From: a virus
UHGV virus genome: UHGV-0216281
Length of the DNA: 10,084 nt
Reading direction: 5' to 3' (one strand)
This document shows positions 1 to 3,576 of this stretch, piece after piece. The stretch's first letter is position 1, and every line of letters starts with the position of its first letter. Under the pieces are notes generated by a model. It searched no databases. It was given only the letters and a program-made list of their open reading frames with translations, and was not told where the DNA came from. The translations under genes were made by a program, and so were the position numbers.

Positions 1-108
1 ACCCCCTTTTGATTTCTTGTTTGACACTTGCAGTTGCCAGACCGCAAGGTGTTTTAACAAATCAAAAGGGGTTTGAATAACTGGCTCAAAGCTGAAAGCT
101 TTCCGGAA

Positions 109-131
109 CCCCCAGCCTAGCTGGGGGTTTT
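109..131 (+). terminator. Intrinsic terminator-like hairpin on the plus strand (cccccagc-cta-gctggggg followed by tttt)
   Basis: 8-bp GC-rich perfect stem at 109-116/120-127 with a 3-nt loop, followed by TTTT at 128-131. No plus-strand ORF lies upstream inside the window, so the transcript it would terminate is unknown. Confidence 0.4.
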
Positions 132-140
132 CTGTGCACA

Positions 141-165
141 ATAAAAACCCGCTCAACAGCGGGTT
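141..165 (-). terminator. Intrinsic terminator for minus-strand transcription, tR'-like, about 60 nt downstream of the pR'-like start
   Basis: On the minus strand: stem aacccgct / agcgggtt (8 bp, 4-nt loop) followed by TTTTTATT. The A-run sits 5' of the hairpin on the plus strand, so it is unidirectional for minus-strand transcripts. Confidence 0.55.
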
Positions 166-196
166 CGTGAAAATTATCAACGGCAGACATACAAAG

Positions 197-240
197 CCCA
201 TCGTTGAGAAAATCTTATCCATATTTTTTGAAAAATGCAA
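197..240 (-). promoter_or_regulatory. pR'-like late promoter with a lambda-type promoter-proximal pause element (candidate qut region)
   Basis: Minus strand reads TTGCAT (-35, 240..235), a 17-nt spacer, TAAGAT (-10, 217..212), 6 nt, then CAACGATGGG (206..197). As I recall it, lambda pR' has the same layout (TAAATT, 6 nt, CAACGATGGG), with AACGAT acting as the -10-like sigma70 pause element. It lies immediately downstream of the Q-like gene. Confidence 0.5.
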
Positions 241-271: not shown

Positions 272-1030
272 TTATCTCGTCACCTTTCTCAATTGTGTTT
301 CAGCATATGCTTCTTCCTGCCAGCACTTTGTTACCAGTTTATCAATGACGTCTGCATATCCTTTGTACCACTGATAATCAGTCAGGTCTGGAACCAGCTT
401 CTGGACATGACGTCGTGCCAGTGTAGTTGGTAAACGGCTAAACCGGTTTCCATTGCAACGCCCACAAATCTTATAAACAGGCGTGCCATGAAGCCGGGTC
501 CTTTTTTCATCCAGGACAATACCTTTACCCTTACACCCTCTGCACGCTGTGCTGACTTCTCCCTTACCATGACAATGCTGGCATAGTTCCTTCACCCACT
601 CTTCCTTGATAACAGATTCCCCGCTTCTGGAGTGTTTCACCACCTCGCGCAATACATTATGAAATCCAGTACCAGCACAATGCTCACAGCGAGCCTTACT
701 TGCCGCAGACCTGGAATAATCAGCAAAGGCAAAATTCACAAGGTAAGGAATGATCTGTAGCCGGGTTTCTTCACTCAATTTATTCAATGTCGGGTTATCC
801 AGTGCCATCGCGTAATTGAGCAGACCTTCAATCGCAAACTGAGGATCCTGAACACCAACTTTTGCCAGGAATAAGGCAAACCCAAGCGGTGCTTTCGACT
901 GCACCATCCCCTGCGCAGCCATCACATCCGTAATCGTTAAACCACCAGAGCCTGTCGCCGGTGCGTCATCGCTCAGTTTTGGAGATTTCGGGGAGTAATA
1001 TTTCGGTAAGGCTTCAAGGTTCATGCTCAT
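272..1030 (-). CDS. Late-gene antitermination protein Q-like (QuuQ-like), with four CxxC motifs of DnaJ-type zinc-finger pattern
   Basis: ORF of 252 aa. A GGAGA Shine-Dalgarno abuts the first ATG, so the second ATG at 1024 (250 aa) is the more likely start. Contains CEHCAGTG, CQHCHGKG, CRGCKGKG and CGRCNGNR (CxxCxGxG-like repeats). It is the last gene of the operon and sits directly upstream of a pR'-like promoter, pause element and terminator. The family assignment is from memory of Qin-type Q proteins and is not verified. Confidence 0.65.
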   Translation of the reverse strand: MSMNLEALPKYYSPKSPKLSDDAPATGSGGLTITDVMAAQGMVQSKAPLGFALFLAKVGVQDPQFAIEGLLNYAMALDNPTLNKLSEETRLQIIPYLVNFAFADYSRSAASKARCEHCAGTGFHNVLREVVKHSRSGESVIKEEWVKELCQHCHGKGEVSTACRGCKGKGIVLDEKRTRLHGTPVYKICGRCNGNRFSRLPTTLARRHVQKLVPDLTDYQWYKGYADVIDKLVTKCWQEEAYAETQLRKVTR

Positions 1031-3253: not shown

Positions 3254-3576
3254 ACTTTCAGGCCCCTCTCATGTAACCAGTGGGCTGCACGCAGCCTGGC
3301 GTTTTCCTCACCGACAAGCAGTGAGCGGATAATCCCGACCGCCTCGCTGTCGTCGTCCTTCACCGCGGTATGAAGCGTGATCCCCCGGGCCACACCACGC
3401 TTTATCGTGATGACGCCTTTTTTCTCCAGTGCGCGAAGATGCTCCACCGCTGCATTCACCGAACGGTATCCCAGCATGGTTGCCACTTCCTGATTGGTTG
3501 GCGGGAAGCCACGCTCTTTCTGATAAGAAATCAGCATATCCAGCACCTGCTGCTGGCATTGAGTTAACGTCGTCAT
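3250..3576 (-). CDS. LexA N-terminal DNA-binding-domain protein lacking the S24 peptidase domain
   Basis: 108 aa. Residues 3-70 (LTQCQQQVLDMLISYQKERGFPPTNQEVATMLGYRSVNAAVEHLRALEKKGVITIKRGVARGITL) align closely with the E. coli LexA N-terminus ([65 protein letters not shown]). No Ser/Lys dyad region follows. ATGA overlaps occur on both sides. Confidence 0.8.
   Translation of the reverse strand: MTTLTQCQQQVLDMLISYQKERGFPPTNQEVATMLGYRSVNAAVEHLRALEKKGVITIKRGVARGITLHTAVKDDDSEAVGIIRSLLVGEENARLRAAHWLHERGLKV

Follow-up and report, generated by a model that had tools for sequence, protein, structure and literature searches.

The closest described system is the PR'-qut-tR' region of phage lambda, which belongs to a type of Q-dependent cassette arranged in the order Q gene, PR', sigma-dependent pause element and terminator (PMC9388147). 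In lambda, the Q-binding element (QBE) sits between the −35 and −10 hexamers (PMC4914094, PMC9388147). Together with the sigma-dependent pause element, the QBE makes up qut. The role of the −10-like/discriminator-like sigma-dependent pause element has been described, and the scrunched sigma-dependent pause has the consensus T-N-Y-G, located at lambda +14 to +17 (PMC9191641). Three residues of lambda Q, G39, L202 and T206, are needed for antitermination (PMC9388147). The late promoters of lambda, 21, phi80, 82 and P22 are known to give short RNAs, and StxS is the PR'-tR' RNA of the Stx1 and Stx2a phages that carry a Q of 144 aa (PMC7547250).

We analysed a stretch of viral DNA of 10,084 nt, here called the window, whose positions 141–240 lie on the minus strand between a Q-like gene and a mobile element. 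With a probability of roughly 0.85, we read these positions as the Q-utilisation cassette of a lambdoid, mEp460/SfV-like prophage, consisting of PR', a sigma70-dependent pause element and tR' (Table 1). Read in this way, the cassette is an ordinary lambda-family late-gene switch, textbook biology for which no new mechanism is needed, and the allele would be a further example of it, its promoter activity, pausing and read-through being inferred from comparison with lambda.

Table 1 Coordinates of the cassette features and of the neighbouring elements in the window
Feature	Coordinates	Strand	Basis
Q antiterminator gene, Q-lambda family	272..1030	−	PF03589; ORF of 252 aa
Candidate −35, TTGCAT	235..240	−	Sequence; 3/6 match to consensus
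17-nt spacer TTTTCAAAAAATATGGA, presumed QBE	218..234	−	Position and clade conservation
Candidate −10, TAAGAT	212..217	−	Sequence; 4/6 match to consensus
Predicted +1 (205) and sigma-dependent pause element AACGATGGG	197..205	−	AACGAT 205–200 (+1 to +6), GGG 199–197 (+7 to +9)
Predicted pause/scrunching region, TTTG TATG, +11 to +18	188..195	−	Sequence only
Predicted 5'-terminal RNA hairpin, +1 to +27	179..205	−	Outer stem AACG/CGUU, inner UGGGC/GUCUG; in MFE and centroid fold
Predicted PR'-tR' transcript without Q, ~60–65 nt	141..205	−	Fold and terminator
Intrinsic terminator tR'	141..166	−	Hairpin 166–145 and U-tract to ~141
IS200 left end, abutting the cassette and not part of it	1..140	−	Rfam RF01405 STnc490

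Promoter layout and the upstream Q gene

A sequence-only reading of this DNA had proposed the minus-strand order TTGCAT, 17 nt, TAAGAT, 6 nt and pause element, and this order can be read directly at 240–197, with TTTCTC (211–206) separating the −10 from the pause element. The letters after the 6 nt had been given as CAACGATGGG; strictly they are AACGATGGG, a trivial difference. AACGAT is −10-like and GGG is discriminator-like, and both are in the initial transcribed region. The lambda layout given in that reading was checked by alignment and proved to be right: lambda 44553–44595 reads TTGACT-17 nt-TAAATT-TGACTC-AACGATGGG, with the same order and spacing as the window, and 32 of 44 aligned positions are identical, including a shared 12-mer, CTCAACGATGGG. 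At the sequence level the lambda-type pause element is present: as in lambda, it occupies +1 to +9 and begins 6 nt after the −10. Within the predicted pause region, T-N-Y-G is matched at +11 to +14 (TTTG), at +15 to +18 (TATG) and a third time at +19 to +22, the nearest match in the window being one base out of the lambda register.

Several differences from lambda were also seen. The −35 of the window is weaker (TTGCAT against TTGACT in lambda), and the spacer is identical to that of lambda at 11 of 17 positions and different at 6, a likeness that could be largely compositional in an A/T-rich sequence. An intrinsic terminator follows in both, but it ends at about +63 in the window and at +193/194 in lambda. 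After +9 the RNA of the window is unrelated to that of lambda, although both transcripts are complementary between +1 to +5 and about +19 to +25.

A generic promoter scanner made no call at the site, where the hexamers reach 7/12 against a threshold of 9/12, because the −35 is weak. Given the conservation described below, the missing call need not count against the candidate promoter, although the low match to consensus is a point against it. A search for the composite pattern TTG-N20-TA...T-N6-AACGATGGG gave a single match in the window and none in 200 dinucleotide shuffles, whereas in a chance test the bare 9-mer with one mismatch allowed was not rare. The signal is therefore carried by layout and position and not by the 9-mer alone.

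The assignment of the upstream gene to Q, also proposed in the sequence-only reading, is well supported. Pfam PF03589, the family to which lambda Q belongs as well, matches two stretches of the gene at 3.8e-54. Its N-terminal and C-terminal parts are both matched by the Q-lambda structure chains 7ubm, 4mo1 and 7ubj, at 1e-38 to 4e-23. In the alignment with 7ubm (1e-38), residues 3–122 correspond to lambda 1–125 and residues 162–252 to lambda 117–207, and residues 123–161 form an insertion with an extra CxxCxGxG pair. The CxxCxGxG repeats had been regarded as unusual for a Q, and the Pfam model DnaJ_CXXCXGXG matches the protein below its cutoff. Judged from the alignment, the repeats are an insertion of ~40 aa that duplicates the zinc-ribbon “arm” of Q-lambda, a common expansion that is no obstacle to the assignment. 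Both the 207-aa lambda/P22-type Q and a Q of ~250–275 aa occur among the listed, spread-sampled phage homologues of less than 60% identity, and these matches include Gifsy-2 and phages of Klebsiella, Erwinia and Yersinia.

The Q protein of the window is 99% identical to SfV Q and 43–44% identical to the Q of lambda (43%) and of CFT073, and in an alignment of four Q sequences the residues corresponding to lambda G39, L202 and T206 do not vary. On these alignments, the upstream gene is a genuine homologue of Q-lambda along its entire length. The probable start of the gene is the ATG at 1024, for a protein of 250 aa; homologues begin at MNLE. Its stop codon is at 274–272, and 31 nt lie between the stop and the −35. 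With an extra zinc-finger pair in the arm of Q, the geometry at the QBE may differ from that in lambda.

Conservation across Q-downstream regions

Conservation was followed in two sets of sequences, one of ~80 distinct Q-downstream regions (82 for the count of terminators) from many enterobacterial genera, and the other of 15 lineages of the window's clade from ~10 genera, whose Q is 64–100% identical to that of the window. In the ~80 regions, which span Q clades of 35–100% identity, AACGATGGG hardly varies and follows a TA...T hexamer at a distance of exactly 6 nt. In the 15 lineages, the mean frequency of the top base is 0.99 in AACGATGGG, 0.89 in the −35, 0.86 in the −10 and 0.83 in the spacer, falling to 0.61 further upstream. 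The −35 is kept as TTGCA(T/A) in these lineages, and the −10 of relatives is TAAGAT, TAGGAT, TAAAAT, TAGTAT or TAGCAT, so that TA...T is mostly kept.

Within the Q clade of the window, TTCAAAAA and the TGG of the spacer are conserved. From one Q clade to another the −35/spacer sequence changes, whereas the pause element and its 6-nt offset are constant. A clade-linked spacer beside a fixed pause element is what would be predicted if a binding site specific to Q lay beside a sigma site specific to the host. In one natural recombinant (L052), AACGATGGG is the exact point at which a window-type promoter is joined to the lambda 6S region. Beside any PF03589 Q gene, AACGATGGG placed 6 nt after TA...T and followed by a terminator at about +55–75 can serve as an annotation marker, giving a simple and reliable sign of the start of the late operon.

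The terminator had been placed about 60 nt after the predicted start, and the terminator scan agrees with this position. It calls GAACCCGCT-GTTG-AGCGGGTTT at 166–145, with 9 pairs, of which 5 are G-C, a 4-nt loop and the tail TTATTG; the U-tract TTTTTATT occupies 147–140. Counted from +1 at 205, the hairpin extends from +40 to +61 and the U-run stops at +63, predicting an RNA of ~60–65 nt. SfV and phage Ayreon carry a terminator annotation at the homologous site. As for the short 6S-like RNA that had been proposed, its length holds, but a terminator at “only” ~60 nt is not unusual: the hairpin and T-run end at +54 to +76 in 73 of the 82 family sequences, most often at +63 to +65. Therefore the short RNA is the norm of the family, and lambda is the outlier. 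In relatives, the terminator is kept through at least six different stem sequences.

By homology with lambda, taking the mechanism of Q-lambda from PMC9388147, the pause from PMC9191641 and the position of the QBE from PMC4914094, we can propose how the cassette would work. The sigma70 holoenzyme would start at A205, and sigma region 2 would then re-bind AACGAT(GGG) in the non-template strand, holding the complex at a predicted position of about +13 to +17. Without Q, the polymerase would escape, and the hairpin and U-tract would terminate it at about +60 to +65, so that a short RNA with two hairpins is released. When Q is present (gene at 1030–272), it would bind the DNA of the −35/−10 spacer, dock on the paused complex and make it termination-resistant. 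The Q-modified transcription would pass tR' and next enter IS200 rather than late genes directly.

The predicted short RNA

The unit may instead be primarily, or additionally, an sRNA gene, in which a constitutive promoter with a terminator close by would yield a stable regulatory RNA of ~63 nt in lysogens, like StxS, with the read-through by Q as one of two uses; we consider this possible but unlikely. The RNA has the usual build of an sRNA, being predicted to fold into a 5' stem-loop, a single-stranded, A/U-rich linker of 12 nt and a terminator with a U-tail, and the 65-nt form has an MFE of −21.3 kcal/mol (z-score −2.8 against 200 shuffles). The short RNAs from late promoters cited above, StxS among them, are precedents. 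The likely seed would be the linker, which is however the least conserved part of the predicted RNA. A search of Rfam with a permissive threshold found no family that matches the RNA, and positions 141–240 gave chance-level hits only (OmrA-B at 16 bits, Leu and Trp leaders at ~16 bits).

The 5' hairpin gives the sRNA reading its most specific form, in which the ~63-nt PR'-tR' RNA is a conserved prophage sRNA whose 5' hairpin is built from the pause element (AACG...CGUU) and is compensated where the pause element has mutated. This too we consider possible but unlikely. The hairpin is kept in at least 10 lineages with two compensatory changes, AACAA/UUGUU in L106 and AAUGA/UCAUU in L133, and a similar 5' fold is predicted in most lineages, with differing loops. 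Among 29 sequences, each of the four AACG/CGUU pairs is a standard pair in 27–29, and the fifth (A5 with U) in 9; taken together, the five pairs are formed in 82.6% of cells. On the other side, the hairpin could simply stabilise the RNA, or it could reflect constraints at the DNA level, and formal covariation is weak. Because both arms are nearly invariant, the covariation of the 5' stem falls short of significance, being reached in 51 of 500 shuffles. Shuffle tests of the stem gave P values of 0.01–0.4 per lineage, each weak alone, and a Fisher combined P of ~0.001 over 10 lineages that are not independent. RNAalifold returned no consensus structure for 29 representative transcripts, whose variable loops and terminator stems are beyond what MAFFT can align. 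If the RNA did act as an sRNA, the 5' hairpin would stabilise it as well as the 5' end of the antiterminated late mRNA, and the variable A/U-rich linker would be a lineage-specific seed acting in trans in lysogens, including those of Stx2c phages and K-12 (Qin).

StxS and the predicted RNA of the window are alike in that both are by-products of a constitutively active and constitutively terminated late promoter beside a Q gene. They differ in that the tR' of StxS is 258 nt from PR' and its RNA is processed to 74 nt (PMC7547250), compared with ~63 nt here. Moreover, StxS goes with the unrelated clade of 144-aa Q and is reported only there (PMC7547250), whereas the Q of the window is of the long PF03589 type; judged by Q clade, the window RNA falls outside StxS. 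We also considered HnrS, a 66-nt sRNA of an EHEC prophage (PMC13502914), as a PR'-tR' RNA of PF03589-Q cassettes, and claim no link; the CFT073-type cassette is present in at most two copies per genome, and its listed hosts are mostly not EHEC.

The prophage group and the adjoining IS200

Cassettes with a Q 94–99% identical to that of the window were found in SfV, mEp460, Stx2c phages and the Qin prophage of K-12 (ydfT/quuQ), the identity of Q being 99% in the Stx2c phages and SfV and 94% at the Qin-type E. coli locus. For the K-12 Qin copy, the equivalent +1 is predicted on the minus strand of NC_000913, at position 1,642,422. From the 3' end of Q through tR', the DNA is 91% identical in SfV, Ayreon, mEp460 and Stx2c phages. 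These phage modules are without IS200 and have same-strand ORFs downstream, which are phage or moron genes. In the Stx2c phages, tRNAs also lie downstream, together with unannotated ORFs that we presume to be stx2c, the cassette being ~2.5 kb upstream of them. Promoter strength, pausing and terminator efficiency would in this case bear on toxin output. More generally, the cassette would mark the start of late transcription, and the step at which it is gated, in a widespread group of E. coli/Shigella prophages.

The cassette had been described as the entry point of the late operon, but in the window it runs straight into IS200 and not into late genes: no late genes follow the terminator within the window, where the next 140 nt are IS200. 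Homology to phage genomes ends at about 136–140. At the junction, GGGTTTTTATT is followed by TACTTG in empty-site relatives and by GTGCACAG in the window, and for the window's Q allele the junction with IS200 was in no complete E. coli genome of the collection.

Given the IS200 after tR', the prophage may be defective. A further step would be to regard the cassette as a relic that is intact in sequence but belongs to a defective prophage whose late genes are no longer switched on, which seems to us rather improbable. IS200 comes right after tR' and the next 700 bp are not phage genes, the cassette persists in the cryptic Qin prophage of K-12 as well, and elements have decayed in some relatives (L138 has AACCATGGG and a weakened hairpin, and the terminators of L029 and L074 are broken). 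All elements of the window are nevertheless intact and 100% identical to the copies in several E. coli chromosomes, the insertion left the U-tract unchanged, and the Q ORF is of full length. Furthermore, viable phages, mEp460 for example, match ~86% of the 10-kb window at 96–97% identity, and a Q-modified polymerase would be expected to read through the terminator of IS200 too.

It is very improbable that the hairpin at 166–145 belongs to IS200, or only ends the early/Q transcript, and that the hexamers are fortuitous: many BLAST matches to IS200 in E. coli and plasmids do extend a few to ~30 nt upstream into a hairpin and T-run, and the hexamers score low, but IS-free relatives have the same hairpin, which makes it phage DNA, the extensions at other IS200 copies are different terminators that reflect an insertion preference (PMC13548323), and the promoter/spacer/pause block is conserved across genera in exactly the layout of lambda. 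The empty-site loci thus rule out the terminator hairpin as a part of IS200, an element that prefers to insert next to terminators (PMC13548323), and the lambda-type cassette ends where the element begins.

The sequence-only reading had overlooked the IS200 left end at 1–140, as well as the origin of the CxxCxGxG repeats and the conserved 5' hairpin. Compared with the published anatomy of IS200 (left-end palindrome at nt 12–34, 5'UTR stem-loop and Shine-Dalgarno; PMC4513863), positions 140–1 are the left end base for base, including the palindrome and the sequestered Shine-Dalgarno. Rfam RF01405 (STnc490), the one genuine hit of the Rfam search, matches at 129..6 and scores 143.9 bits, the gathering score being 56. 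Directly after the U-tract comes the boundary, at 139/140, and the left-end terminator hairpin is at 129–107. Only the first ~140 bp of IS200, the region of the art200/STnc490 antisense RNA, are inside the window; the Shine-Dalgarno of tnpA, AAGGGGGT, is at 9–2, and in otherwise identical IS200 copies tnpA starts 4–5 nt beyond window position 1.

The predicted late promoter and terminator behind Q

The sequence-only reading had proposed a pR'-like late promoter on the minus strand just past the Q gene, laid out as TTGCAT, 17 nt, TAAGAT, 6 nt and a pause element. This description was accurate, because every element is found in that order (see table) and the composite pattern TTG-N20-TA...T-N6-AACGATGGG occurred once in the window and in 0 of 200 dinucleotide-preserving shuffles. 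The 9-mer AACGATGGG alone, with one mismatch permitted, was not rare. With A205 as +1, the terminator hairpin runs from +40 to +61 and the last base of the U-run is +63. Only 7 of 12 positions in the two hexamers agree with the sigma70 consensus, and a generic promoter scan of the window did not call them.

Features of the late-gene module and the adjoining IS200 end, in window coordinates
Feature	Position	Strand	Basis or remark
Q ORF, 252 aa	1030-272	minus	stop TAA at 274-272
-35 candidate TTGCAT	240-235	minus	31 nt past Q stop
Spacer TTTTCAAAAAATATGGA, 17 nt	234-218	minus	read from sequence
-10 candidate TAAGAT	217-212	minus	read from sequence
TTTCTC	211-206	minus	between -10 and AACGAT
AACGAT	205-200	minus	predicted start at A205
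GGG	199-197	minus	directly after AACGAT
Terminator hairpin GAACCCGCT-GTTG-AGCGGGTTT	166-145	minus	terminator scan; 9 pairs, 5 G-C
Run TTTTTATT after hairpin	ends at 140	minus	read from sequence
IS200 left-end terminator	129-107	minus	mapped from PMC4513863 features
IS200 Shine-Dalgarno	9-2	minus	mapped from PMC4513863 features

The sequence-only reading had likened this layout to lambda PR', and rightly so. Within lambda 43800-45300, the PR' region reads TTGACT, TATTGAATAAAATTGGG (17 nt), TAAATT, TGACTC and AACGATGGG, the first A of AACGAT being lambda coordinate 44587. The layout is identical to that in the window, 32 of 44 aligned positions match and the 12-mer CTCAACGATGGG is common to both. 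The two transcripts show no relation beyond +9, and the lambda terminator sits near +193 (PMC4914094). Three T-N-Y-G tetramers (TTTG TATG TCTG) stand in tandem at window 184-195 on the minus strand (+11..14, +15..18 and +19..22); T-N-Y-G is the published consensus of the scrunched sigma-dependent pause and sets the lambda pause at +16/17 (PMC9191641).

Initiation, pausing, Q binding and read-through are what we infer from homology with lambda (PMC9388147, PMC9191641, PMC4914094). Sigma70 holoenzyme would start at A205, and sigma region 2 would re-bind the non-template AACGAT(GGG), anchoring the complex while the RNA grows by scrunching; a pause is predicted at about +13 to +17 because of where the three tetramers fall. 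Without Q, the complex would escape and terminate at about +60-65, and with Q on the spacer it would turn terminator-resistant.

Conservation and spread of the module

Two sets of loci were compared: 80 viral contigs with a Q at least 98% identical to that of the window, and 63 loci (Q identity 35-98%) drawn from one-genome-per-species contigs and spanning Escherichia, Shigella, Enterobacter, Kosakonia, Mangrovibacter, Phytobacter, Atlantibacter, Buttiauxella, Scandinavium, Edwardsiella, Erwinia, Pectobacterium and others. AACGATGGG or a variant differing by 1-2 bases lies downstream of nearly all Q genes compared, and the distance from the TA...T hexamer to it was always 6 nt. Across 15 lineages of the window's Q clade (Q identity 64-100%), the conservation was sharply localised: the top-base frequency was 0.99 at +1..+9, 0.89 in the -35, 0.86 in the -10 and 0.83 in the spacer, and 0.61 in the stretch from the stop codon to the promoter. 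What the sequences show directly is that each element is present, where it lies and how far evolution has constrained it, together with the family to which Q belongs.

Across Q clades the pause element is constant and the -35/spacer block switches as one unit, reading TTGCA(T/A)..TTCAAAAA..TGG in the window clade, TT(T/G)A(C/T)TTTTCC(C/G)GAA.CTGTG in the CFT073-like and Enterobacter-like clades and TTGAC.T.TTGAATAA..TTGGG in the lambda clade. This pattern fits a Q-specific DNA site beside a host sigma70 site. In contig IMGVR_UViG_2565956633_000004 (L052, about 3280-3450), a natural recombinant, a window-type Q and promoter are fused to the lambda 6S region exactly at AACGATGGG, which shows that window-type and lambda-type promoters are homologous and can be exchanged at this element.

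In 73 of 82 distinct sequences a hairpin and T-run end within +54 to +76 (mode +63-65), so the short distance is usual for the family and it is lambda that stands apart. The terminator had been placed about 60 nt from the start, which agrees with the window, but regarding this as notably short does not hold for the family. At least six different stem sequences occur among the relatives (e.g., CCCGCT/AGCGGG, CCTCGC/GCGGGG, CCTCGC/GCGAGG, ACTCGC/GCGAGT and ACCGCC/GGCGGT).

SfV, mEp460, Ayreon and fifteen Stx2c-converting phages carry the module, from the Q 3' end through tR' (the terminator after PR'), at 91% identity, and several E. coli chromosomes carry it at 100%; about 86% of the 10-kb window matches phiSTEC1575-Stx2k, PhiR47_1 and mEp460 at 96-97%, the match stopping at window 136. 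In a Stx2c phage, three ORFs and two tRNAs come after the module and then, ~2.5 kb downstream, ORFs of 366 and 89 aa, presumed from their expected position in the unannotated record to be stx2c A and B. E. coli K-12 Qin carries TTTGCAT-17-TAAAAT-6-AACGATGGG and then a terminator after ydfT (L153, the MG1655 Qin locus, 1860-1960), so that this cryptic prophage keeps promoter, pause element and terminator intact, with the predicted +1 at NC_000913 1,642,422, minus strand. Immediately past the Qin terminator comes the small gene ynfS, followed by cspF on the opposite strand.

The earlier finding is real and its interpretation correct: judged by homology, the cassette is a further lambda-type Q-dependent late-gene cassette and essentially the SfV/mEp460/Stx2c-phage/Qin allele. 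Its kind is textbook; the homologous hairpin is already annotated as a terminator in the SfV and Ayreon records, and the phage and E. coli records examined also carry an annotated Q gene. Only the short terminator distance across the family, the candidate conserved 5' hairpin, Q's enlarged zinc arm and the IS200 against tR' go past the textbook.

Lambda Q itself is encoded in contigs of ~25 assemblies of unrelated taxa (L116-L148), including Pseudomonas, Shewanella, Oceanobacillus, Bradyrhizobium, Kitasatospora and Segatella MAGs. Where sampled, the DNA downstream is identical to that of lambda, and several contigs are ~48.4 kb, which suggests contamination with lambda DNA. An Escherichia-type prophage with a window-type Q (95% identity) is present in a "Veillonella parvula" MAG (L092).

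The predicted short RNA and the Q protein

Three parts make up the predicted fold of the 65-nt transcript (MFE -21.3 kcal/mol, z-score -2.8): a hairpin at the 5' end (+1..+27), an A/U-rich linker of 12 nt and the terminator. In the predicted 5' hairpin (window 179-205, minus strand), AACG of the pause element is paired with a conserved CGUU located near +23..+27. In every one of ~10 lineages, whose loops are otherwise unalignable, a sequence within +19..+29 was Watson-Crick complementary to nt 1-4 or 2-5, and lambda also carries such complementarity (AACGA/UCGUU). Altered pause elements come with matching partner changes in two relatives (AACAA/UUGUU in L106 and AAUGA/UCAUU in L133). Shuffle tests of the stem gave P of 0.01-0.4 per lineage and a combined P of ~0.001 over lineages that are not independent; formal covariation of the stem was not significant because both arms are nearly invariant, and RNAalifold on a MAFFT alignment returned no consensus structure. 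We regard a conserved 5' hairpin in the late transcripts as a lead with modest support. A stem starting at nt 1 is the classical arrangement that protects an RNA 5' end, and here the short RNA and the long late mRNA would both benefit from it. In an unrelated short-Q clade, the PR'-tR' RNA StxS acts as a trans regulator (PMC7547250).

The Q ORF matched PF03589 (Antiterm) at 3.8e-54, the Q-lambda family among three unrelated Q families (PMC9388147), with DnaJ_CXXCXGXG under its cutoff, and its best solved-structure matches were Q-lambda chains (7ubm at 1e-38, 4mo1 and 7ubj). The structure match falls in two pieces (query 3-122 on lambda 1-125; query 162-252 on lambda 117-207), flanking a ~40-aa insertion at about residues 122-161 (window 548-667) that bears an extra pair of CxxCxGxG motifs. 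By this alignment the insertion lies within the region corresponding to the lambda zinc-ribbon arm, residues 114-152, which touches the Q-binding element and sigma region 4 (PMC9388147). In the 273-aa CFT073 homologue the insertion at this site is longer still. A promoter spacer of the same 17-nt length goes with the longer Q arm.

Phage homologues of <60% identity, sampled for spread, comprised 207-aa lambda/P22-type and roughly 250-275-aa proteins among the matches listed, which include Gifsy-2 and phages of Klebsiella, Erwinia and Yersinia. Since long-type homologues occur among the sampled phages, the DnaJ-like repeats, which had been called unusual, are a common variant and no bar to the Q assignment, which itself stood. 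The N-terminal segment, the RNA-exit "nozzle" in lambda, is well conserved, and the residues matching lambda G39, L202 and T206 do not vary in a four-sequence alignment. The ORF as listed opens MSMNLE (1030), but all homologues open MNLE, so the true start is probably the second ATG, at 1024.

IS200 adjoining the terminator

Rfam STnc490 matched window 129..6 at 143.9 bits (gathering score 56); this family is art200, the antisense RNA to the 5'UTR of the IS200 transposase. At the IS200 left end, nt 12-34 form a bidirectional terminator and the Shine-Dalgarno is AAGGGGGU (PMC4513863); the mapped positions of both therefore place IS200 nt 1 at window 140/139. Window 1-140, minus strand, is thus the IS200 left end, inserted directly past the tR' U-tract so that tnpA and late transcription run the same way. 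Polymerase modified by Q should pass both tR' and the IS200 left-end terminator, which could, speculatively, couple tnpA transcription to induction of the prophage.

The empty site is represented by five contigs whose cassette is identical; at the junction they have GGGTTTTTATT|TACTTG, against GGGTTTTTATT|GTGCACAG in the window. Both hairpin and U-tract are therefore phage DNA that the insertion left unchanged, and with the IS200 boundary at 139/140, 141-240 are almost precisely the last native phage bases. The cassette/IS200 junction was absent from the complete E. coli genomes of the collection searched. In CFT073 (L003), IS200 occupies the equivalent position behind the tR' of a different Q allele, and unrelated IS200/IS1541 copies on plasmids likewise adjoin a hairpin and T-run. 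Terminators thus appear to be a preferred landing site of IS200/IS1541, in agreement with their reported enrichment upstream of IS200/IS605 elements (PMC13548323). In five different contexts (loci L003, L005, L006 and L009, and window 141-166) independent copies of the element lie directly 3' of a G+C-rich hairpin and T-run, and these insertions adjoin ...TTT(T)(A)T|TGTGCACAG.
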